This document shows, one piece after another, positions 19,501 to 38,200 of a stretch of DNA of 64,000 bases. The position numbers and the translations under genes are program-made. This DNA is from Bispira polyomma (taxonomy: Eukaryota), in NCBI GenBank assembly GCA_965649765.1, contig OZ287750.1, positions 69,564,001 through 69,628,000 on the forward strand. The letters are read 5' to 3'. The notes under the pieces are model-generated. The model had not been told where the DNA came from and made no database searches. It saw only the letters and a program-made list of their open reading frames with translations. Position 1 is the stretch's first letter. The number at the start of each line of letters is the position of its first letter.

Positions 19501-21895
19501 CCTAGAATATGACTTTATGTATTACTTCACTTTCCATGTTTCTTTTAAGGTAATTAATAAAAATTACAATAAAAAAACAGTATAAGCAAAATAAGTAATA
19601 CAGAACAAACAAACAATGAGATAAAGAAAACAATGCATATTGCTTTAACCAAAACAACAATAGCAACAACAATAGAATATACAACATCCAAACTAATGGC
19701 TAGTGGTATTTGTACAGTTGCTACATCTTGGCTCCCTGTAGAATGTACGTTTAACAACAGCATCTACTTTTACCTTCATAAACTATTCATATCTACAAAA
19801 CCAGTGGTTGACAGACTAAGACAGACTCTGTTTCGAAATGTCTGACTGAGTTAGCAATGTGTAAACCTTTTATATTGTGTGTAGCAATTACACCACTTGT
19901 TAGTTTCACTCGACTGTATACAAGAAATACATTTTTTGAGTAACAATATCCACAAGAAAATGTGTGATATAACACATGTCCTTTTCCATTTTGGAGATTC
20001 AATTAACAGTGTGTTCACATTGTAAGAGTTGCTCTTATTTAAAAAATACATATAAGTGCATTCCTATATTCACAACCAACATTAATCAAACAGGCCTTTT
20101 AAAATTTTTTTCAAAAGACCCTATTAAATACAGTTATATGATTTTGATGAATTAGAAATCTGTCTAGCTGAAATTTTTGCTGTTTATTCTCATTTTAACT
20201 TTAGAAATTTATGACATAATAACTGGCCTTGTTTTCAAAAATAATATATATTCAAGCTGGATAATGTATATGAAGTATGTGAACATGACAAAAACGACAA
20301 GGTAAATATAACTTATATACTAAGTATAAACTTATAATGTTCATTTAATTTCTGGATTTTTTGTGACAGCCAAACCTCTTTATTAGTTTCATAGGTAACA
20401 CCTATATTAAGGCCTTGATATAAAAGAGAAGAAAATAGATAAATGTGTGTGTGCAAATGTGAGTAAGTTTAGTGGGAGAGGTCTCATTCCGCTTCAAAGT
20501 TTATACTCCCTATCCTTTATACTCCCTAACACCTGTTAGCGGCCAGGTACCCATTTATACACCTGGGTTTTTTTATGTTTAATTTAAAAATTACTGGTAA
20601 ATATATGTTGTAGCTATATTTGCAGTTTTGTTAGTGAAAGTTTTGTTTTTTTATTATCCTATTTTAGGTTTTTTCTACTTCAATATTGCAATAATTGTTT
20701 TTAGTTGATTGTTCTTATTCTATTTTTATTTAAAATTGTTTATTTCTATTAAATATTGAATTATTTTAAAAATACACCAAAAATATCCTTGCCCCATTTT
20801 TATTACATTATGAGCCCCACAAAAGAAACCCTCTTTTCAGAAAAACCTCTTTTTTGTGGCATTAATAAATTATTGTTGTAAATAAATTAAAAATATTACA
20901 TAAGTATTTATGGGGTGGAAGAAGTAATTATATGGTCCTGTTTTATCCTGGGTTATTTATGGGATGGAAGAAGTAATTATATAATCCTGTTTTATCCTGG
21001 GTTATTTGTTTCCCAACTTTGAAAATTTCAATGTTCACCATTTACAAAGAAATATCTTCAGTCCCCTGGTTTTTTATTGTTTCCCAACTTTAAACATTTA
21101 ACGTTCAACATTTACGAAGACATTTCCCTGCGGAGTGATATAGAGAGAATGCCCACCTGGGAAGAGAAGGACTTGGTGTGAAGTACATTAGCCCAGGGTA
21201 CAATAGCCAGCACTGTAGTAAAGTTCGAACCTGAGACCCTCTGATCCAAAGTCAAACTTTCATGAAAACATTTTTACTAATGTTGACCTTTGGGAAGATA
21301 GTGACCAAAAATTATTTAGTTTTAGGGCCCCTGTAAGAAATGTCTTTACTGCACATGCACACAATATTTAAAAGTTTTCTGATAAAATGGCACTTCGACA
21401 GTTACTCCAGAAGAGATCAACTTGGTCGGTAATATGTATAGGTTAAGATCCATGTTAGTGTTCTCTCCTTGGAAATAAAGTATAGTTACCAAGGTACAGA
21501 GTGACCACAAAAGGTCCATGAGGACACTGACCTATTTAAATTACACCATAACAGTTATACTTTCTTCTCTTTCTTCTACCAGCTTTTGTATCTAGTAGTG
21601 AGTATGCGTTTTAAGTTTGTTTCGGATACATTGGGAGGTATATTTTTGGACAAAAGCCTCTGAACAAGGGTTTATCAGATGCATTGAATACTGATGAATG
21701 TCCGTCTATATAAGACCGAGCCTTAACCTCTCGATGTCTGAGCAAAGCTTTTTGAACCAAATTACCAGTGTTCGAGTTCTCAGTCTACTGAGAGAAAGTA
21801 AAAACTAAGTGCACATTAGGTTAGGTTCCTAAAATTGTCTTGTATAATTGAAAATTACCCTGTAAAAGCTATATATGATACACTAATATGCTTGA

Positions 21896-22773
21896 AGGTC
21901 TAAACACACACAGCCGCATCCGGATTTTCTGGCGGAATGGGATTTAACTCCCATATGGGATTTATCTTCTTTGCAGCTATACTGACACGAATTATTCAGC
22001 CGAATCCTGCGTAATGAAGAAGATCAGTGGCTTTGTACAGTTTTAGGGTACTAATAGTATAATACCATTATTTTTTTTAAAGTATAACTGTTTAGAAGAT
22101 TGCAGTCATACATTTTATTATCTAAATAAAAGTCATGTAACATTGGTATCCATTATTATCTGTGCACAATTTCACTTTTTTCTTTGTAAATGTGCTGACA
22201 TATGTTTATGACAGACACTCGCAAGATTTATTATAAAGAATAAATATCTCACGTGGTTTTTGGGAAAAAGTAGATTCAACGTTCCCCATAAAAATACTTT
22301 TAGATTTTAGGTTGTTTTACTTTAAAACACTACATAAATATGAAGACTGACACCTCTAATGTATGCAATCTTTTAACACAAGCACATTGAAATAACAGAC
22401 CCACCAGTGCACTGGTAAATAATACAATTAATTCCTTGTCAAACAAATACGTTCTTATCTTTGGTTGAAGTCATGCTGTCAAAAATTGCCTTTACAAGGT
22501 TGATTTATAGAGAGTTTATTGTATATATATAAAATTACCTCATGTAGCTTGATACAAGGTTATATTTTTATATAGAGAGTTTACTGTATACATAATATCC
22601 TCAAAATATATCCGTCATGGATTTAGAAAAAGATCCGTGCAAATTAAATTCAGGTAGGATCTATAGATCCGCATCTGGATTCGGCTAAGTGTGTACCCCT
22701 GCAGTGTTCAAGATGTACAACCGGATTGGCGATCCGGATCTGCATCCGGATACAGCTGTGTGTGTTTAAACCT
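21896..22773. mobile_element. Non-autonomous Harbinger-type MITE (878 bp)
   Basis: TIRs aggtctaaacacacacagccgcatccggat and atccggatacagctgtgtgtgtttaaacct, flanked by tga/taa (degenerate TWA TSD). Confidence 0.8.
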
Positions 22774-24370
22774 TAAGTCTAACCATTAAGGGGCACCAGC
22801 GAACTGTCTGGGCAACCAACAATTTTCCTATAAGACAGTTTGTCCCACCACTTGCAGGAATTATGCGGTACAGTAAACTGAATGTTTCAACCCAACCACA
22901 AAAAAAAAAAGCATTAAGTGTACAAATAAATCTAACTAATGCTGTGGTTAGGGAGTTTAATAATTGAATTTACTTACAAATATGGAGAATGGGAGGGGAA
23001 CTTGGTAGCATGTAATGATAGAATAACACGTTATTGGTTAAGAATGATGGGCAGAAAAGGTGGTATGGGAGGTTGCACCTAATTAATTAAGGTAGTGTAT
23101 AATTAGTGGATTGACAAATAGTTTTATGAGGAGGTCCTGATGTATCCATTTAATTATACTATTTGGTGTTGTAATTGAATATATTTTCTTTCTGGCCGAC
23201 GTCACAATATTATTTGGGTGGGTCAGGCTTGATACTTTGCGTGTAATTGTTGATATATTATTGATAATAATACATAATTAAGTGTTAACACAGTTTTTAT
23301 AACTAAAGAATAGCCAAATGAGTTACTTATTGTTATGATATTAGAAAACACTTTTATTTTTCTTTTATGACAGTTTAATAGACAATTAAATTCACTTTTC
23401 TGTTTCATGTAACAATAAAATGACAAAAGGACTTAAACAAACATTTATACATAGTTATGGCTGTTCTTTGTTTGATCAATAATATGCTAGCAGTGAAGGA
23501 TGTTAATTACATGTCAGTTTTGTAACATATTGATCATTGTATCATTTATCCATAGCACAGGTTTTGTAAAAAAATTCTCATGCATGAATTTCACACAAAA
23601 GAGAGTTTTGATTTAAACATGGCATTGACTGAATGCCTCTGAAACATTTGTCAACTTTAATCTCTGCTCTTTTTAACTTTTTAATAACATGATTTTGCTT
23701 GGCATAATTATAGGATCATATGCTTTAGATGAATTATTAAACAAACACAAAAGAGGGGTTAAGTTACTAGAGAGTACAGGAGGTGGTATTCAGGAAATGA
23801 CTAATCAAGGTTTTGTCTTGGAAAAATGTATAGATTAAGCTATTTTGTGAATACCATCCCAGGGGCCATATTCGCAAAGGGTGTTTGTTTTAACCTAGTC
23901 TTCAGCTTCAAATTTGGGTTGAACAGGTTCAGATTTTGTTTTTAATACCTAGTGACAATCAGAAAAAATCTTTGTTCGGTGTTAACTTTACTCTCAACAA
24001 CAAGCCTAACAGTTGGCAGTCTTTAATATTTTAGACATAAATGGTTTGTATTATTTCAAAAGAGACTATTTTACAGTCTGTAACAAGTACAAGAATTAAC
24101 ATCTTGTACTGCCAACTTATTATTGATTACAGTCAGAAACAAGTACAGGAATTAACATTCTGTACTGTCAGCATATTATTGATAACTTGTTCAATAATTC
24201 TGCACTGTAAACAAATGGTTATTAGCAAAGTGGTGTACCTGTACCATTCAAACAAACATTTTTGGGTCAATATTTGAATCTTTATCACCAATAATATTGT
24301 GTAGTATTAAATTATATCTATATCTTTGGGTTATTTAGAATACTAAAAGAAATCGTATTTTGTAAATGGC

Positions 24371-24481: not shown

Positions 24482-27400
24482 AGGGGGAGACACATTGGTA
24501 GAATAATTGATGTACATCATTTATTAGGATTATCTAAGGTAATATTTGGCAGATGTATTTATGAAGGAAAATCATGCTGTGTATTATTAAATCATGCACT
24601 TTGCCAAACCTCGGAGTAATTTTTCCTTAAAAAAATATGGATCCGTCGGCACTAACTCTGCGTACTCAGCTGCATACTATATTGCCAGCTTTCCCACAAA
24701 CATGCCAGGGAAGAGATTCGAACCGATCATTGGAGATATGGGAGGCAAATGAGTTATCACTAATGATCCTAGTTTACTGTTATGACAGGGCATAATTTAA
24801 AGGAAAAAAATAAGCATGACTTATAAATACAACTTCTACTTGTTACTTCAATAATTATTTGTAGTTGAAGTATTTGTACAGAATACATTATATTTCATAA
24901 CTATTTTAAGGGGTGCCTATAATATTATTATGCAAATAACTATTAGTCTATATTATGTAATAGATATGGCATCCCAACAATATTTTTGATCAAGTATGAA
25001 ATAATATCCAAATTATAATTTTTGTAGTGTCATTAAGTCAAGGTAAATACGTCTTCAAAGCTTTAGCTGATAGCAATACCTGTATCTTCTTTTAACAAAC
25101 ATATATTTTCAGGGGGAAGGTGGAAATTGCACTGCATGTTGTGAAGATAATTATGCTGTTGGAGGTTTTGGTGAAGATTCTTTCACCCTGTCTTGAGTAA
25201 TCAGCAGCAGTAAGCAATGAGGGACAATTTAACTGGTAGTGTTGTGAATTCATTCCTTCTTATGTAATAAAACAGTGTTTTAATTGATTGAAGTTGGACT
25301 GTTTTACAAAGTTTCACTATATTGAATTTCCAAAAGGCAACCATTGTAATATAAACTGAAAACAGTACAAATGTCACATTATTGTCTGTTTAATGGATAA
25401 ATTCTTCTGTTACAATTTACTGCAATAGTAACATGACAAAATCTGATTAAAGTTGAATGGCCAATCCTGTGTGCCATCAGTGATATACCAACAAAACTAA
25501 CTGCTAATGAGATGTTATTGTTAGGTGCTATTGTATAAGAGACATATTATATAATTTTATTATAGATCTATGAATCTTCTCTGATAAATGTGATAGAGCT
25601 AACATATTATGATTTGCATTATCATTGTTCTGTTAGCAGGGAGTTTACTTTCATTTTGTATTCTAAAATTGCTACAACATGGTTTGTTGACCCAGAAGGG
25701 ACTTACACTACAGGCCTTAGCTTTACCTTTATGACCATCATGGCAGTCATAACTTAGTTGAAACATGTTTAATAATCCTACAATGAAACATTGCTAACAT
25801 TGATAATTATAATTTAGCTTCAGATTCGGTCATGTTAAGCTTCTTAAATCATCACAATGCAACGTCCAAGCACATCATATAGTGGTGGAAGGAATACAAG
25901 CAAAAGATTCAGTCTTTATAATGGGACAAATGTTGAAAACATAGGTTTTGGGTGTTTTTTTTTTTACAAAAGTCGTCTCATACCTGCAGGGAGATTAGTC
26001 TATTTCGAAGTCTATCCCGAAATCATGTATCCTTATTTTCTATATTTTGTAATTAGCTGTATCTCCTCATCAAACTTTGCCATTTTGTGGTGTTCTGTGG
26101 CTGGGAAGTTGCTCTGGTGATCAGAAGGTCAGTAGTTTAACTCCTTATCGGGGGAGTTGGTTTAGTGATCACAAGTTCTCCAGTTGGACTCCTGCTGATG
26201 CTGCTTGGTTCACTAGATAACTTCCCTGTTGAAAATATGAACATACCAGTGCATACTGATGACTACCCAGGCTATGTTGTAGGATACGTGATGACTTTAT
26301 TGATTTAGATGCTGCCCTTCACATAGTCGTCAATCGTCGCATAAACGCAGAATACTTCCTGTGTATTTCCGGAAAAGTTATTTATAAACAGAAGCAGAAA
26401 TAGAAGATAAATCAGGTAAGAACGTTAGAATTTTGAATACTTGATTAAAAATAATTATACCTGTGGCAATTACTAAAGAAGTGCCTTAGAATGAATTGCA
26501 TGTCAGTTAAAATTGTTATTATATCACAGAAAAAAGCACCACTGTGGGTGATAATATAAGATTTTGTCAAATACATCTGATATAAAGGTATTTTACAAGA
26601 AATTTCAAATACCATTGTATTGCAAGTGTTTAATTTAATCTATATAAAAATAACAGGCATTGTTTCAGTGTTAACATGTGTATGTAGGTCATTTAAAAAT
26701 TACGAATGAATACCTTTACTGGGAATACGTGCATACCTTTACACAGTATATTCTAACCAACAGCAATACCTGAAACCAGAATATTTTTAACTTTTATTTT
26801 GACTGCTTTACATTGAAAATGTTACACTGTTAGACAGTTGTACAGATAGGACAGTAAATAATCAAGTAAAATCAGTGTATAATCTAAGGTTGCAGTTTTA
26901 AAATTACTTTAGTATCAATTCTAATTACTGTACAAGTAGAAAATATCACTATAAATTAAGCATCAAATGTCAAGTAGGTATATAGCACATTTTACTAATT
27001 AGATTAAATACTGTGAATTCATTTCCATTGGAAATTCATATACAAATCTCTCTGTATGGCCAATAGTGAAAATTTATACCTGTGAATTCCTTACAACTTG
27101 TAAATAGAGATGAAATTTGCTTCTTAGGTTAAATTTTCACTTGTACAATATTTAATTGATACATGTATAATATATATACTCTTTGAAGCATAACCTTGGT
27201 TCACATTCACTGGTGACTCGCCAATGTTAGTTGAATCTCCTTCATTACTTCACGTGGAAAAGTTTGTCAGGTATTTGAAGTAAGCCAGTGGTTTACATTG
27301 CTTCAGCACTGATTTCTTCCACCCTTAAACTTGGCTGCCCTCAATATGACATATAAACTGTTGGCTACACAAGACTTAACTAAATTTTAAAATATGTTAC

Positions 27401-27583
27401 TATATGTAAAATCCTGTGTATTTACTGATTTTCCCGAGGGAGAAATCTGGCCATACAACAAATTATGTTGAAGATGTGACTCAAACAAACTCAACCAATT
27501 TGTATATTGTATTAGCAAACTTTATCAGTGATTCAATTATTAATGTTATTTGCATTAATTGTTTGTTCCTTATTTATTCAGGT

Positions 27584-28215
27584 ATGGAACTATCAGCACT
27601 AGAGACGAGCATCCATGAGTTTTCGGCATCTGGGTCACAAGAAGGATCCTCTCAACCTATCAGACCTACCAACTCAACCTCAACCTCAGACAGTAGAGCT
27701 ACAGGAAAACAATTAAAGAACTTTCCATGTGATGCAGTGGGTTGCAGCTACAGTAGTAAATGTTTATCTTCTTTGAAGAGACATACAATGCGCATGCATC
27801 AAGTAAGAAGATTTTCATGTGACCAATGTGCCAGTAAATTTGCTCTTAAAAGTGAACTCGGAAGACATTTAGCGTGTGTGCATGGGCCCCCTCTGCGATA
27901 AACAATTTAATCATAAAGATGACTATTGTGCACACATCAACAAGCACATGAATATGAGAACGTACAGCTGTAGCAATTGTTCCAGCAAGTTTCGTACACG
28001 CTCCAGCAAGCACATTCATCAAAAACGATGCCTTGCTAGTTTGTCTGTTTCCTATGTGTGGAATGTGCAAACTGACATTCAAGACAAAGGCAGATTTGGA
28101 TCAGCACAAGCAAAAACACAGTGTAACAAAGCATGACAGTGAAAAGTGTGGGAAAAGTTACAAATGGAGGAACAATTTGTTTGCACACAGTAAGAACTGT
28201 ACAGGAAGGTCATAG
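27584..28215 (+). pseudogene. Transposon-borne C2H2 zinc-finger gene (about 6 fingers, 2 frameshifts)
   Basis: Fingers FPCDAVGC..H....H, FSCDQC..H....H, CDKQF..H...H, YSCSNC..H...C, CGMC..H...H and KCGKSY..H...C lie across three consecutive frames. A splice acceptor ttattcAG is at 27581 just before the ATG, and a candidate donor cag|GTAAGA is at 26416. Confidence 0.85.
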
Positions 28216-28359
28216 ACAAATTTTTAAACTGTACGAGGAGTAGTTAATCTCCAGGTTTCATTTATTACTCTCTTTTAGTAATGTCTAAGTAAATACTGAA
28301 TAGACAGTGAATTTATCTTGTGTGTGCATTTTTTTATAAAGATTGTTTGATCTGAGATT

Positions 28360-29200
28360 TTACTGTTATTGTTGTGTTTACAGTTTTATTTTGCATTTTA
28401 TTGTAATTGTTGTCTTACTTGCAATATCAATACACACTATTGTAATCATATACAATTGTTTGATATACATTTGTTTATCCTCACATATACTTTCACTTTT
28501 TGGAAATTATTATTTTTAGGTAAAGAACACATAATGTTTTATTTTGTGTTTTATTGTAATTGTATGTCATTTTTTTTCTATTATCAATATACATTACTGT
28601 AATTGTATATAATTTTTTTCTATTATCAATATACATTACTGTAATTGTATGTCATTTTTTTCTGTTATCAATATACATTACTGTAATTGTACGTAATTTT
28701 TTTTCTAATATCTATATACATTACTGTAGTCATATACAATTGTTTATACATACATTTGTTGATCAACACATCTAGTTTTTTTCTTTTGTGATCATGTAAA
28801 AGGTAGTTATTTTAGGTAAATACAGTTCAAAACTAAGGTTTAATTTTATATATACTGTAATTGTTGGACATTATTGTTTATTACCCATATACATTATTAT
28901 AGTAATATACAAATTTGTTGATATACTTTTTGTTTATCTGCACTTATACATTTTTCTTTGGTCTACATGTCAAATGTGATTTTGAAAGGAACACATTAAA
29001 ATTAAGTTTTCATTTTGCATTTAACTGTAATTGTAAGTGTTTTTTCTATAAGCATTATTCATTACTGTAGTGCTATATAATTTTGTCTGTGCAGATTTGT
29101 TTGTCTACACATTTACTTTTTATCTCTTGTAATTTTGTAAAACTTGCATATATTTTAGTAAAGAACCCATCAAAAATAAAGTTATTTTGTTTTAATCTTA
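28360..29200. repeat. Degenerate AT-rich tandem repeats between the convergent genes
   Basis: ~43-bp units ttttttctattatcaatatacattactgtaattgtat, about 4 copies at 28550-28740, nested in longer imperfect repeats. Confidence 0.8.
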
Positions 29201-29727
29201 TTATTTTAGTAACTTGGATGTCAACTTTAAAGGAGATGCGTGACATTACAATATTCCTGTAAACACATAGCAGCCTTATATAATAAATGGTTTAGGGGAG
29301 TTTATTGCCTGGTGACCTATATTTCTTGTGGTCCAAGTGATTCTCTACAATAATAGATTGGAATTTTATAATTGTTATGTCTCACTAATGTGGTTTAGAA
29401 TCTTGTTTGTTCTTTCATGTCAGAAAGTTTGTCACTGTGGTTTACAGTGTTTTAGCATTGGTTTCTTTCAACCTTTAATTCGGCCACCGTGATATGAACT
29501 AAACTTTTGAAAATATATAGCATAAAACCAACTAAATTCTGATAGTTGTTATAAGATTTGCACCAGAGCACTGGAAGATTTGATATAAATTTCTTAATAA
29601 TAAACTAAAAAAAATTTCATAATTTTATGTTACTTTTATCCTAACATTTTCTATGCTGTTGAGCTTTGCATGCTTTCCACCTGAACCATTAATAGAGAAA
29701 AAATACCATCTATGGCATGTTATATAG

Positions 29728-32700
29728 TCAATTGTCTTCGATGTGTAGTCCTGTTAGCCTCTTTAACAAAGGAATTTTGCTTTCATCTAATTTGTAAAAC
29801 TGTCTCACAGGACGTGCTCTCTTTGCAGGTTCACTAACATCAGACAACTGCCCTCTTTTTCTCTTCTGTTTCCCACGTTTTCGACTAGGATAATAAAACT
29901 AATCATCACTGAAATGAAAAAAAAAGAAATTGTTTTATGAATAAACAAATCAGTTACTTAAAAAATGTGCACGTAGAACAAAGATAATAGTTACAAAAAT
30001 TATCAAATATGTACTCACTAGGCCATTAATGATTGTAGCTGTGTCACCTCTGGCTGCCCATTCCAAATTTCTTCATTTTGTTTGTAGAAGGTTCCTGATT
30101 ATCCTGTATACTTGGAACATCATGTTGTGGAAAGGCCTTCTTTTTCATTGTGATAAAAGCAAAGCCTCTAAAAAGGGATAAATTTCTTCATACTTTTTTT
30201 GAGTTATCATACTATTAAAATTAATACGATACATTTTGCATGATTACAAATAGGAATATACCGATTTATATGTTTTAGCAATTTAAATTTACTTTTATGC
30301 CAGAAAATTATGTATGAGTTACCCATTCGGTATGCGAATTGAATTTTAGCCTTTACAATGTTCAATTTTGACCATTTTTACATTTGACCTTGTTTTCATA
30401 TAAAGTGTCTTAAGTCCTTGTATGATAATTTTATATTTGTCATCTTTTACATACAAAAATGTGACCTTGAAGCTCTCCAAGGTGATGACAGATACTTCTA
30501 GGCCCTGACGTTATATCATGCTCATTATTAGTGTGTCACAATATTACAAGTTAAAGTTTATCTTAAGATTACATGTTTGAATCCATTTTTGTAGCCAGCA
30601 AATCACAAGCTGTAAAAAAACGGAAACTTCTGTAGGTTTCAAAATGTCACTGCCAGCAGAGTCCAAACTGCCAAGTGCCCTGGCATTGTAATGATTACCT
30701 GGAACCATTGCATACAGCTGCAGTCTTCGCTCAATGCCTGTTAGGAGACCTTCATATTCAACAAGTGATATATCCTTTACAAACAGGCCTGGGGGTGGAA
30801 AGATTGAAAAGTCAACATCCTTTAACAGCCATTCTCTGAGAGTTAGCAATTTATGTATCCGTTCTATTGCTGAAATACCAGGTTGATCAACAGCTTCATG
30901 ATAACCACGTATACAACTGCAAAATTTAGCCTCACTAATATCACCATTCTTTCTCATCTTTAACTTCAGCAGAAAAGGTCTTCAGTGCATATGCTGATGA
31001 TTGCCTGTCAATTATATCTTCCACCATTGGTAAACTAAGATCTGTTTTATTTTCTGGATCCATTGCGATTTTATGCCAAGCTTCTTTTTTAATACCAGAC
31101 TTAACAATTTCAGATTTGTAAACCTTGTATCGGCAATTTGTGATTTGATGATGGGGATCCAAGATGTCGAAATGATATTGTCCTATTTCCTTTATGAACT
31201 GTGGCTGTGAATACCATTCAATGGAATCGTTAATAGCCATAATGTCCATCTTATCATGAAAGGGTCCCGTTGATTTCCACTCTGCAAGTTTATCTGGCCA
31301 TATAACCTTTGCATAGATAGAATTGGTGTCTTCCTTTGACAAATGTTTCAACTGGGCTATGTAAACCAAACTAACATCAGTAATTTTGTTGCTTTCCTTC
31401 TGAGGTTTCTTGAGAGTGGTTGCTTCTAGGGATGACCCATCACCACACACTTGGGACAACAGGTTTACAAATAACTGTTTTGACAAACATTTAGAAATCT
31501 TGACTTTATTGGCTTTAAGTATGTCAATTACTGGTTCTATCATAGTTTTTATGTCTTTCACTGTGAAACTTGAATTCAATGTATGTGCATTTGATAACTG
31601 TTGACTGAACTCCGCCAAAGATGTTGATTGCCACTTTTCACAAACTCTTGGCGATTCACTACTTTTCAATACTTTAAGCATGTCTTCTTTACTTGAATCA
31701 TTGAGACAAAATTAATGCTCTTTTACTAAGGCTGGAGGTGCTAATTCCACACTTGTGGATACTTCAACTTCAGCAATGGGACTGTCTGTAACATTGTAAA
31801 ATATCATTTCAAATGTGTCTGTTAAAAATGCTTCATCTTGAGACATAAATAACCATACATCGTTTGGTGTATCCATAGTCACATTGGTAAGGGTTTCTCT
31901 TGCCACCTGTAAATTGACATCTTTGATAACTTGTAGAACATCAAGGTCCAATTCTTGACCTTACACATCACTTCTTGACTGTTAATAACATAATCCTGAA
32001 AATTCTCTTCTGTAGTGGTTTGAACATTATCAAGATGAGATCTTGGTTTGCCATGTGCCTGTTTCGTTTTGTGAAGTCTTTGTAAAATATCTCTTACAAT
32101 TGAATTTCTCCAAAATGTCTCTGTTGCAGGTTTAAGACTTCCAATGTAATATATTGTATCACCGCCATCGCATATTGCTTCTTTAATTTGTACATTAGCA
32201 CCATTATGCACGTTCATACTGCCTGGGAGTAATTGAATTATCTGCTATAGCTTTTTGTTAATTGTGGATTTCTGCATTTTTTAACCAATGTAAAGACCTC
32301 TTTTTGTAACTGTAGCATTGTTAGAGGATTTCCATCAGTATCTCTAATAGCTAATGAAGCCCACTGCCCATCATATGATGAAACAGGCAAATAAATGCCT
32401 TTGTTATGCAGTGCCAAAATCATGCATTTTACGTAAAACCTTTGCTTGTAAGCTGTAACCTTTTAATGCATAGCCAACTGGTAAAGCATGAGCCTGCTCT
32501 GCCTGATAGTGGCGGTACACATCACTTACAACCCAAACTAAAACCTCAGTGCACATGTTTTTGGTTCTTTCATTAGCTTCTTTATTTGCCTATTTGGTGG
32601 TAAAGTAAGCATTACCGAGGGATTCAACTTTTGTTTTAGTTGCCAATGTTACATCATTACTGCCATGGTCATGAAAATCTGGTAACCCTGTTAGTACATC

Positions 32701-35232
32701 TGTGTTATGCTTACAGCTTTGGGCTTTCAAAGGCTTTACTTCAGCTACCAGCTGTGTATTTTCAGCAATGAATAGCTTCATTTGGTCTTTCAGGATTTCT
32801 GTACTTGGATCTCTTTTTCCTGGTCTTCTTGGTTTGTCACCGTTGTAGAGATGTACACATAGAGCTAATATTATAAGCCACAGTGATTCATCATGTTTTA
32901 CTTTAAAAATGGTGGATGATTCATGATTCCAACAAATAAATATCAGTACGTGAGTATCTAGCACAACCATTTCAGAAAGTACTTGTGGAACATAACGTAA
33001 TGGAAATTCATAGAATACATCTGTGGTGAAGATCTTACCAGGCATAGGACACTTGAATTCTAGTCCAAGTTGTACTGGCCCATATGGTGATGTTCTGACA
33101 CTACCATCTGGGCTTACCATATAAAAAGGTTTATCTCCAATCATCAATTCATAAAAGCTGTCTTCAACAAAAGATAGCTTTGGATAAAGGGCTGGTAGAA
33201 CTTTACCCACTAATGTAGCAACTGCATTGATTTTATTGTCTGTCACATGTTTAAATAATCTTTGGGTTTCATCATCTACTAGTTTCTCTTCCCTTCTAAA
33301 TATAACTTTGTGCAAATGTTCTTGCTGTTTATTTAGTGTGTCTAATCCCATAGCTACATAAGCTGAGCTTCCAGTAACTTTAAATTATTTTCTCCTAACA
33401 AACCATTCTTTCGATTTTTGCTTCAGAAATCGAGTATGTAAATTCAAAGGATGTTCCTTCAAGCAAAAATAATTGAATTGTTTCTGTAAATTTAACACAT
33501 CACATTTGCAAAATCTGCTGTCACCATTCATTGAAGCGAGACAGCACATAATATCATCTGAGCATTGCAAAAGTTGTTTCACACAATGGTCTATTTGCAA
33601 AACCGAAGTGTGCAAAGCGCTTACAATTAAAGCATATTTGGATTTTCTCCAGTCAACTCCACCTAACTTTTTAAATTTTTCCTTTGCCATGTTTTACTTT
33701 ACTTTATGTTTTCTTAGTTCACATTGTGTCTTTGCAATAATTTTCAACTGACCTTGGTCATTGACTTTTTTTTACATTTTTCACCTGCTGACAACTCATA
33801 AAGGTAATTTTATCAATAATCAAACCTTCCAACCAGTTGATGTCCTTGTTTAATGATCCTAACTCTTCATCTAAACGATCATACTTTTCCCTCAGGGTAG
33901 GTTGGCCTTCAAAGCCAAAAAGATTGATCTCTGAATCTTTACCTGTGCCCCTGTGGTTTAGCTTTTTACCTAAAATATACATAGTGTATTAATTGAATAC
34001 CATAAAGTATTATGTCAAGGTAAATCTCTAAAACCTATATCGCATGCAAAGAATATATAACATGATCAAGGCGTTTTGGTTATGAATACCTTCTAAAAAT
34101 CAGAGGTTAAAGACGTCCATCTTACTGTACATGGCCACTTTTGGTCGATCATTAATGGGTAATAATTTGGAAATATATGTCAGCAAAATAGAAAATATAC
34201 CACACATACAAAATATGGTATCATTTAAACATATCTTTTATGCAAGTTGAAAAAAAATATTGTTTACTGAAAAATGCCATATCATATCAACACATACTTT
34301 GCGTACTTTCTGGAAACATGTTAACAAAGGTGGTAATATTATTAAATTTGAATCTTCTATAAAGTTTTTACCATCAACACAGATCTTGTGTGGCTTGTTT
34401 GGTCCAATTCGTGCTAATATTTCGACCATTGGCTTTAAAATTTCAGGGTTCACATCTTTACTCTGTAGAATCTCTGTACTTTTGTTATCATCATAGAGGA
34501 GGCTTAATGATGGAACAGCAAAATTTATGTGTGCACTAGATGGATGAAGACTGTCTGTTTTTTTCATCATTTAGTGATAGCTTTTCTACAAGCAGACCTA
34601 AATGTTTATAGCCTGTCAAAAAATTTGCCAAAACGTTTGGCTACAGGATTGTACCTCATCTGTCTGGTAGTGTCACAGGAAAAAAACTCCACTACATCCC
34701 AAAATAAAACCAAAGCAATGTTATCTAAAGGTATTTCTTTGTTTGCAAGAAGTTGTAAAAACTTAACAAAAGTAGAATTTTGGTTGTCTTCTTGTAAATA
34801 ATGCAATACATCTGGCATTAGTCCTATTATATCTTTCATTAAGCATTCATTAGATGTCATATCAACTTCTGATATTGCATCTCGCAGTTGTTCTGTCCTT
34901 CTGTTTGGATCATCGTTGAAAAGGCTTCTTTTGGAAGACTTAGAATTTTGTTCAATATGCATTTTCTTTGGTGCTGGACTTTTTGAAGATGTGACATTGG
35001 ATACAGTTATAGTTCGGGCATTCTGGTCAACCATAATAGTTTCAACGTCTAATTCTTTTGGTGTTATATTTATAACTTTTGACACTAATAATACTTTTGC
35101 AGTATTTGGGCAAATAGTTTTTTCCCTGTATTTTATTGGTAGGTCATTGTGGATCTTTAGCTAATGTTCTATCACAATTGTGAAAGATTCTTGAAAAGAA
35201 CAATATCCACACAGACAGAGTTCCCAATCCAT
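29728..35232 (-). pseudogene. P-element-like DDE transposase with embedded YqaJ/lambda-exonuclease domain (~1,500 aa, 4 inferred exons, multiple stops and frameshifts)
   Basis: Motif order: N-terminal CGYC..H....H finger; INFAVPS; KICVDG|KK across GT-AG intron 34371..33970; YqaJ domain; CTEVLVWVV...LPVGY; SSYDGQ; LDPHHQITNCR (DxxH); DRQSSAYALKTFSAEV; EAKFC; YNARALGSLD; basic C-terminal exon RKRGKQKRKR. Confidence 0.75.
32870..33425 (-). other. YqaJ/lambda-exonuclease-like PD-(D/E)xK domain within the transposase
   Basis: KQKSKEWFVRRK*FKVTGSS, SPDG, EFKCP, YVPQVLSEM, FICW and VKHDESLW are the family motifs in canonical order. Confidence 0.88.
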
Positions 35233-38200
35233 CACTGCATCTATACATAAAACATTATGACAAAAATGTTCACCAAGTTATTCCATAGCAAATTTACAAA
35301 TTTAAATTATAGCATTCATTAAAATTATATCATATAATTTCATTCCTTCAATTTTGACCTTCCGTAACTACACTTCTTAAAATTAATTTTGTAAGGCTTT
35401 TTTCAAAGTATTCACGGACAAGGTATAGCACTATTCCTGGTAAAGTTATGGTAATTTATCAAGGTATTCTTGGTAAAGGTATTTCACGGAGGAACTAAAT
35501 TGTTATATAATTATTAATACTGATAAACAAGAGCAATACAAAAAACATCAAACAAATGTGTTACCAATATCTTAAGATCTATGTAATAAAAATGTACAAA
35601 AGTCGATAATTTCCATGTATAAACAATGAAAACGTGATAATCCACTGTTTGTCTTAAACCTTTACCGAGAATACACAGGAAGTATTCCGCGTTTATGTGA
35701 CGATTGACGACTGTGCTTCAGAAGATGTCTTGCAGAAGGCTTATCAATATTTAATCCTGTTAATATGGATAGTGCCCATTTCAGTATAAAATATATCATT
35801 GGAACCATGATATATAACCAAATTGGATAAATGATACAAACAGAGGTCTCAAACCCATGTTTTAATGTGAAGTTTTATTATTTCCATATTTAAGGAAAAC
35901 ATACTTAAGAATAATTAGCAACTAAAACGTGTTTCAATGACCTCTAATTGATGATGTAAATATAATAAGATATTTTTTAATGTTATTTTTATTCTAAATA
36001 GCGCGCTGCAATCTTAGAAATAGTATGTAAGCTTTCATTGATTAGTTGGAAGGAATTAGATTTTGCTGAGTGTGCAGCCATCTTGGAAATAATATGTAAG
36101 GCCTTCATGGAGTGGTTCAAAGCAATTGACTCGTCCAAACTGAGAGGTGTCAGATATGCTTGAGTATATACTGACTATATCAACATTAGTATATTTCACA
36201 CTTTGTGCCTGTGTCTTTTTTGAAAGACAACTCTGGTTATTAAATTGTTATGCATTGACAATTTTGATGAGATCACAGTTCTATTTGACCTTAACCATAT
36301 CTTAACCTAACATAACTCTAACAATATTCCCCAATTATGGCTTACCTTAGACCTCTAAGGTAACCTTTTATTTATATCTTTCTTTTTTAACCAGTCTGGA
36401 TATAATTAGTATATAAAACATATATTTTCCCAACCACTAGTCTCTCTCACACTTTCACTCACACCAAACTCTCAAGGCACGATGTACCCTAGTTCAGTTT
36501 TGGTTGACATTCTTTCAACACGTTTGTGTCATATTGCGACAGGCAGTTCAGTGGAAACCAGAACAAGGTAGTTGGTCTTGGTTTACTACTGTGTTATGAC
36601 AGCAAGTGTACTGCCAACATTGCTCTGACTATCACAGAGGTAGGAGGTGAGTTTGTTACTACTGCAACACAGAGGCCCCCAAAACACTGGCTCTAATAAG
36701 AATGAGAATATATGTCTGTAGTCCATAGGACTACAAGCAAGGACATAAGTTTGAGCATTCACAATTTAGTAAATCTAAACTGTCGTATGTTTAAATTGTA
36801 GTGTCTACAGCCTATTATACATCTGTGTACAATAGAAGGATGTGTCACAAATTATTAAAAAAGCATGCAGCGTTTACTGTAACATATTATTTTTTTTTAT
36901 TTTTGTAAGAGACTCTATTCTGAAATATAGTTAACTGGAACTACTTTGTTTATTCCCAGAATCTAAGTGACAAAGTTGAGGGATTATTTTTGGTTACAAA
37001 AAGATAGATGCAAAGTTGTAGTTGTAATTTAGTTTCTCTCGGTCTTGTGTGTGTTTGATAACACACAGTGTTGTTATAATTGTATGCAAAGTTTTCTTAA
37101 CATAGTATTTGCCTGCATTCTGCAATCCCAATTTTACACAGGTACAGTAATTATCATTTTACCAGACTGAAGACAGGGTCTTGCATAAGACGACTTATCA
37201 GTGAAGACCACTTATCAGGTTTAAAGAAGACCACTTATCAAAGTTATTTATTCTGCTACTTGTGATAGGACCCTATGGCAGAAGAAAGCCATTTTAAGTA
37301 TAAATCAGAGCCTCTATTTTAAGTCTGGAGAGAAGCCAGGTCTCTGGCATTCCTGTGGTTTACCTACTGGGCCAGAGTGGCATAAAACTAGACATTTACT
37401 GCTTTACTTACAACTATTAAAATAAGTAGTTTATCATTAAAAGGTCACTTAGTCTGAATAGCCATCTAAAATTGTTGTTATCATTGTCTGATTAGATTTA
37501 TCAATATATTGCTTGTCAGTGCCGCTTCAACTTCATTACCTTTTTGTGTTATTTTATGACAGTTTCTAGACAGTTTCTAACATTGTAATGGGACCAAGTC
37601 TTTTCGCCATGTTGAACATCTATAATCAAGAAGATCAAATTACATGGTATAGATTTTGTTTTTCATGGCTCTGCTGAATATTGGGTACACTGCCTGACAA
37701 TTCATGTATGTTCATTAGTTTTAATCAAATATAGTTCTGCTGACTAATCATAATCATTTTTATTAATGCTGATAAATCTGGAACATAATTAGTTAGTAGG
37801 TGTATTAAAGGTGTATTGTGATATATAATGGGTTTTATGTTACCACCATCCTCTATACCTATATCTGTTTCACATTTACTGGTAATTTATTAATACCTTT
37901 TAACCAAAACAACATAGGGGAGGGGTTAATTTAAACAGTGAAGGGGTAACCGAAAATCAATTTTTAAGCTACCCTGTGAGGTAATCTTCAATTGTTGGGG
38001 TAACTTAAACTTGGCGGTAGGGTGTGGTGAAGTATAATTTTAACTTTTAACACTAATTGTCAAAAAGAGAGAATTATTATTATACTGCATAACCTTGTGC
38101 AAAACCAAATACACTGTTTTATCCATGCAAGGGGTACTTATCTCAAAACCTTAAAGTTTATTCTGTAGGTGTGATGAAATGAGGGCTAATTTGGGGAAAA

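Follow-up and report, generated by a model that had tools for sequence, protein, structure and literature searches.

Tandem C2H2 zinc-finger proteins are known chiefly from hosts, where they repress transposons. The stretch of Bispira polyomma DNA analysed here (the window, 64,000 nucleotides) raises the question of what such a protein does when the transposon itself encodes it, since a zinc-finger gene and a transposase gene lie together between the TIRs of one element. We propose, from sequence comparison and with middling confidence, that the finger gene is the conserved second gene of a two-gene P-type lineage and that its protein likely supplies TIR recognition in trans. Thus, a transposon lineage keeps a tandem C2H2 protein as a gene of its own.

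The element spans 9.4 kb (26322-35715), holds both genes and is flanked by TIRs and by the TSD CTTCA, which is present at 26317-26321 and identically at 35716-35720 (both + strand). The TIRs are 56 nt long (left, 26322-26377, + strand; right, 35660-35715, - strand), and the left and right copies are 89% complementary. The family start is CACAGTCGTCAATCG, where the window copy reads CAT. In the left TIR the TCGTC repeat occurs twice with 7 bp in between, and the first 30 nt contain 4 CpG, compared to 0.25 CpG per 30 nt in the interior of the element. The finger gene (27584-28215, + strand; ATG 27584, stop 28215) and the transposase gene (- strand, from the ATG at 35232 to the stop codon at 29730-29728) are convergent, and the tail-to-tail arrangement described in the first-pass annotation is thus correct. 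The same applies to its splice sites (donor 26416, acceptor 27581): a candidate non-coding first exon, predicted from the sequence, ends with a GT donor at 26416 (26378-26417, + strand), and a polypyrimidine tract with an AG acceptor (27561-27581, + strand) directly precedes the ATG in three of three copies. The GT at 26416 and the AG at 27580-27581 are both kept in the sister copies on C2 and C9, and the AG also directly precedes the ATG in the finger gene of the sister family B. The donor GT was not found in six aligned left ends of non-autonomous elements. From stop codon to stop codon the genes are separated by a spacer of 1.5 kb (28216-29727) with AT-rich repeats of 42 bp and ~170 bp, and both strands have candidate poly(A) signals there. 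Within the spacer, at 28394-29142, these AT-rich repeats are nested (periods of 42 bp and about 170 bp), and the sister copies keep them. A short high-copy repeat, at which the summed contig depth greatly exceeds the depth of adjacent bins, is present twice inside the element, in the intron (27231-27362) and in the spacer (29398-29484). Upstream of the element there are two small inverted-repeat pairs (21895-22774 and 23464-24183), which are probably MITEs.

The finger gene had been annotated as a six-finger gene on the + strand inside the TIRs. Strand and placement are right but the number of fingers is not, because the alignment of the three copies of family A, to which the window element belongs, gives an ancestral gene with one exon, seven fingers, and 246 codons. 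In the window copy, fingers 1 (27728-27799) and 2 (27818-27883) are followed by a 107-bp deletion at ~27894, which takes finger 3 and the start of finger 4, by the remnant of finger 4 (27894-27947), finger 5 (27969-28031), a 2-bp deletion at ~28053, finger 6 (28057-28119), and finger 7 (28138-28200), which has lost its first cysteine to serine (all + strand). The gene is therefore spread over three frames, the ATG frame ends at 27901 after two fingers, and the apparent six fingers are remnants of seven. A 36-bp deletion at 30657 has removed the catalytic glutamate from the transposase. Both genes of the window copy are dead.

The genome (1.04 Gb in 75 contigs) was searched at the DNA level for further copies. 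The finger gene was found at three sites, corresponding to all three copies of family A, and it thus co-occurs with the element and is not restricted to the window copy. One sister copy is complete but contains nested insertions (C2:36532704-36560270, TSD ATATA); the other has kept the finger gene but lost the transposase region corresponding to 30157-35366 (C9:39654107-39658728). Both are 91-95% identical to the window copy. The finger gene is broken in all three copies, and the changes private to single copies are close to neutral (10 synonymous and 24 non-synonymous; omega about 0.7, p 0.23). This is what would be seen if a host gene had been captured once and had then decayed neutrally; however, once inserted, both genes would be expected to decay in this way, and the transposase is similarly near neutral (omega 0.44-0.74).

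The TIR pattern gives 229 matches in the genome and none for the reversed control, and the matches are scattered across the large contigs. Ten non-autonomous loci that were translated or searched contain neither the finger gene nor the transposase, and the seven inspected share the ends alone; two further non-autonomous loci also match in the ends only. The TSD is 5 bp long and exact at six independent insertions, matches in four of five positions at one, and is poly-T at one, while none was found at another locus and one end is damaged at the last. The TSD sequences (CTTCA, ATATA, AGGTT, GTTAA, GCAAT, TAAAT) have no common motif. In one region (G000:C2:68324671-68467136; L026-L031, L047, L048) one non-autonomous element is present three times within 140 kb, each time with the TSD AGGTT and a nested retrotransposon, a segmental triplication and not the result of three jumps. 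The insertion data also bear on the idea that the finger protein tethers the transpososome to host DNA or chromatin and in this way picks where the element inserts. An array of seven fingers could cover about 21 bp, and several of them are C2HC fingers, which can bind proteins, but with TIR matches scattered over the large contigs and TSDs sharing no sequence we consider a targeting role distinctly improbable.

Whether the finger gene has been under selection is answered by the sister family B. When the genome was searched at the protein level, with 150 of 1039 candidates scored, one clear homologue ranked behind the family-A copies, at C2:28687594-28688253 (- strand, 196.7 bits); in the same 150 candidates the next-best host gene reached 86.5 bits, and a close host donor was not found. 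The homologous ORF is intact with 220 codons and has the same seven fingers and a near-identical N-terminus. The TIRs on its two sides are damaged but of the same type, the TSD is GCAAT, and at its far end this copy matches the beginning of a convergently oriented family-B transposase relic. Two more family-B finger copies, at C8:53.11 Mb and C10:10.555 Mb, are both broken. The family-B transposase is 52-68% identical to that of family A, the first 15 TIR bases are common to both families, and the introns of the finger genes cannot be aligned between them. Two relics of the family-B transposase (C9:10.62 Mb, C7:39.18 Mb) have no finger gene in the 30 kb and 20 kb, respectively, that were examined around them. 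The C9 relic has been rearranged through nested insertions. At this locus (G000:C9:10617901-10629078; L062, L063) the C-terminal part of the transposase relic is inverted inside nested long inverted repeats.

Between the families, 89 of 195 residues of the finger protein are identical. Synonymous differences are saturated (pS 0.85) at a pN of 0.35 (p 8e-22), and 39 of the 42 structural finger residues are kept. Therefore, the gene has been under long purifying selection while riding in elements. The dN/dS comparison suggested in the first-pass annotation thus has two outcomes, near neutrality among the copies of family A and purifying selection between the families. The base-contacting positions -1, 2, 3, and 6 are kept in 14 of 28 cases compared to 36 of 125 for other non-structural positions (p 0.044), which is a single marginal comparison. 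We regard it as very probable that the finger gene belongs integrally to the element and has been under selection as part of it.

The association extends beyond this genome. A metagenome scan provided six loci with transposases that are 30-44% identical to the query in the best segment. Three of these are uninformative about a partner because their contigs run out ahead of the transposase stop codon or no more than about 170 bp from it (L064, L066, L068). The other three (33-44% identity) extend well past it, and all three contain a convergent C2H2 gene at stop-to-stop distances of 1528 bp (L065), 124 bp (L067), and 7 bp (L069). As background, clustered finger motifs occur in 2 of 232 strand-windows (2.5 kb each) of the Bispira polyomma genome. 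L067 and L069 are related, so that the loci count as two independent distant cases beside this genome. The first bases of L066, CACATGTG, fit CAC termini, short of proof. Relatives were found neither in viral contigs nor in prokaryote genomes, and the family-A and family-B finger proteins had no match in a protein-database search (8 and 15 candidates; proteins of this kind are poorly served by the word index). With a convergent finger gene in the informative distant loci and the gene itself in every copy of family A, with selection between the families, and with no close donor among the scored candidates, it is extremely improbable that a host gene was captured a single time and has been decaying neutrally since.

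A different history would be that the lineage repeatedly captured differing host finger exons at its 3' end, so that the partners are not orthologues and have an anti-silencing or other host-directed role and no fixed role in transposition. The partner genes of L065, L067, and L069 are intron-split, unlike those of families A and B, and also differ in finger number. The last-finger signature common to the distant partners, present in 1 of 57 control host fingers, is also found in host two-finger exons; we therefore dropped it as a proof of partner orthology. Against repeated capture, position and orientation are constant in every informative element, down to the 7-bp gap between the stop codons in one of them, and selection between families A and B has been long. 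We consider this history improbable. A two-component system, as proposed in the first-pass annotation, is therefore supported by the family copies, the selected orthologue, and the distant loci, with TIR binding, targeting, and regulation as candidate roles of the finger protein within it.

The transposase with which the finger gene is paired belongs to a large family with intact members. Intact homologues have 1370-1580 residues, and the family comprises 1508 clusters (50% identity) at E up to 0.001, some of which may match via the nuclease domain alone, and 326 at E up to 1e-30. In 111 aligned sequences the DDE triad is conserved (D339 in 58/75, D876 in 107/111, E1420 in 87/97), as is a DxxH motif between the second aspartate and the glutamate (D1250 in 99/111, H1253 in 97/111; P0003 numbering). 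The nuclease residues E590, D631, E647, K649, and Q672 are conserved as well (88/93 to 98/101). In the window, the gene is read on the - strand from its start with a single N-terminal C2H2-like motif (35150-35232) through the first catalytic aspartate motif CVDGK (34367-34381), a lambda-exonuclease/YqaJ-like domain (approximately 32850-33420; SPDG at 33114, EFK at 33060), and a P-type catalytic core (30601-32460; second aspartate in SYDGQW at 32378-32361, DxxH at 31159-31148) to a last exon that encodes a basic tail (29728-29916). This tail is homologous to the C-terminus of the transposases of distant relatives and was found by tblastn with the L065 tail (E 7e-4).

The fold was assessed with a structure model of the homologue P0031 that was built from 60 aligned sequences (pLDDT 87.5). 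The model aligns to P-element transposase (6P5A, along chain residues 155-569) with a Z of 30.3 and an rmsd of 2.8 A over 366 residues, and P-element transposase is also its top transposase match in Foldseek. The next transposases have a Z of 10.4 or less, and the scores for RAG1, BbRAGL, and HzTransib (Z 9.5-10.4, rmsd 5-8.6) and for Hermes (Z 9.8, rmsd 6.3) are far below. Hermes is the hAT-type transposase in this comparison; the hAT5 group of hAT elements also has a 5-bp TSD. Residues 271-484 match lambda-type exonucleases (Z 14-15.6), and this exonuclease (model residues 290-484) lies in a helical insertion between the first and the second aspartate (D94, D634). Thus, the modelled catalytic core is P-type. 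In sequence, a Pfam match to PF21787 is weak (E 0.003), and a sequence search of the PDB gave one chance match and nothing else. An Atlas lead at 0.88 has YqaJ in 64% of its members. A THAP domain was not matched in Pfam at E<=1 in ten transposase fragments of the window or in seven homologues, which agrees with the earlier description of a transposase with one C2H2-like finger and no THAP. The N-terminal C2H2-like motif is present in 6 of 11 near-full-length homologues.

Transposases of the P superfamily have an N-terminal THAP DNA-binding domain, the TSD of the P element is 7-8 bp long, and the insertion domain of P-element transposase functions in GTP binding. The present element differs by the missing THAP match, a TSD of 5 bp and not 7-8 bp, a lambda exonuclease in the helical bundle after the first aspartate, and the second, convergent C2H2 gene. 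It shares the fold of the catalytic core, the CA termini, and the DDE with DxxH, a signature described as a feature of the P superfamily (PMC9587614). According to the literature, Transib is defined by CAC termini and a 5-bp TSD (PMC1131882) and RAGL (ProtoRAG) has two convergent genes (PMC7204232). The element resembles both in its CAC ends, which are close to the RSS heptamer (CACAGTC compared to CACAGTG), its 5-bp TSD, and its two convergent genes. The ends would point to membership in Transib, which we rejected because of the fold and the motifs. The core is far closer to P (Z 30.3 compared to 9.5-10.4), and the C(2)C and H(3-4)H motifs reported between the second aspartate and the glutamate of Transib/RAGL (PMC12730594) are not conserved in the family, whose only conserved cysteine or histidine columns in this region are H1253 (97/97), C1263 (66/98), and C1332 (61/98). 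Moreover, its TSDs are AT-rich, unlike those of Transib/RAGL. The likeness to ProtoRAG noted earlier thus holds for layout, ends, and TSD but not for the catalytic core, and the partner is indeed unrelated to RAG2, being a C2H2 array (Pfam PF00096, E 4e-21).

Other two-gene DNA transposons are PIF/Harbinger, NuwaI, and ISL2EU (PHIS), for which a separate ORF with a Myb/SANT DNA-binding or YqaJ exonuclease protein is described (PMC4482050). They would be the functional analogues of the present element but have a transposase of another superfamily and TSDs of 2-3 bp, and here YqaJ forms part of the transposase, with a C2H2 array as the partner. KolobokE is described as a DDE transposase of the DxxH clade with a lambda exonuclease-like nuclease (PMC9587614), which is the same combination of domains. 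However, its exonuclease is downstream from the transposase domain rather than between the positions of D94 and D634, and Kolobok has a TTAA TSD and RR..YY termini in place of CAC..GTG ends and variable 5-bp TSDs. The element thus resembles a P-type cut-and-paste transposon in how it works, lacks two features of P, and can be assigned neither to Transib nor to Kolobok. Because the lineage breaks the usual link of CAC ends and 5-bp TSDs to Transib, annotation based on ends would misfile it; it also shows that a RAG-like layout has arisen more than once. In full-text searches of the literature we found no description of this combination, and no papers on a Transib with YqaJ or a P element with THAP and YqaJ; Repbase, which is outside this search, could already hold the family.

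A P-type core without THAP needs another route of end recognition, and this is where the finger protein may act. It would take over the recognition that the missing THAP domain would give: the seven-finger protein would bind the TIR at its CpG-rich TCGTC repeats and recruit or position the transposase, the DDE core would excise and insert the element with a 5-bp stagger, and trimming, either of the excised ends or of the break left in the donor, would fall to the inserted 5'-3' exonuclease. The fingers have acidic residues at +3 in fingers 2, 4, and 6 and an arginine at -1 of finger 4, which presumably fit C/G-containing triplets by the finger code. End recognition by the finger protein would be best read as a parallel to the Myb protein of Harbinger. 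The transposase's own N-terminal C2H2 motif (6/11) could recognise the ends instead.

The finger protein might also be an element-encoded regulator that acts at TIR or subterminal promoters, represses or activates the transposase or blocks the ends, while catalysis does not depend on it. Each of the two genes begins close to a TIR and points into the element. The transposase-less derivatives that keep the finger gene (one of family A and three of family B) fit a repressor role equally well, and these four finger-only derivatives would act like the repressor derivatives of the P element, for which truncated P proteins are reported to repress transposition (PMC5443660). The sole intact copy is also transposase-less, with three synonymous and one non-synonymous private change. 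However, three of the four derivatives are broken, a known repression domain was not found (Pfam gives only the fingers), and a regulator leaves end recognition by a THAP-less transposase without explanation. We therefore regard regulation as possible but on balance unlikely. If the fingers recognise the ends, as we propose, specificity and catalysis would be on separate polypeptides, and because finger arrays can be engineered, end specificity might be reprogrammed.

The intact family-B copy is a transposase-less element (G000:C2:28686130-28689005; L107, L108:594-1253) that has, judged by its sequence, lost its mobility signals, with an internal deletion in one TIR and one base missing in the other. 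Its seven-finger ORF nevertheless has no indels in 660 bp, with 5.5% change upstream, and the private changes counted above (87 polarisable codons) give an omega of 0.10 (p 0.039). A host exon on the same strand lies 8 kb upstream. Its candidate donor and the acceptor that precedes the finger ORF are both in phase 0, which puts the ORF in frame, and more two-finger exons lie beyond the ORF. The upstream exon belongs to a host family of 19 members, 18 of them on C2, with an N-terminal domain without Pfam match. It is plausible that the ORF has been exonised by the host gene, although the counts are small and the selection signal is weak. With an intact, in-frame copy lying in a cluster of host finger genes, there is a concrete path by which transposons could give rise to new zinc-finger exons. 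Taken further, and put forward tentatively and with some doubt, this may be an undescribed, widespread animal lineage that reached the ProtoRAG layout independently on a P-type transposase, requires a separate C2H2 protein for its ends, has a built-in exonuclease, and has seeded ready-to-splice finger exons, one of which was adopted here. In the surrounding region (G000:C2:28644486-28697162; L138, L139, L106, L140) two genes of the 19-member family face each other, each followed by separate two-finger exons, and these exon runs look like alternative terminal exons.
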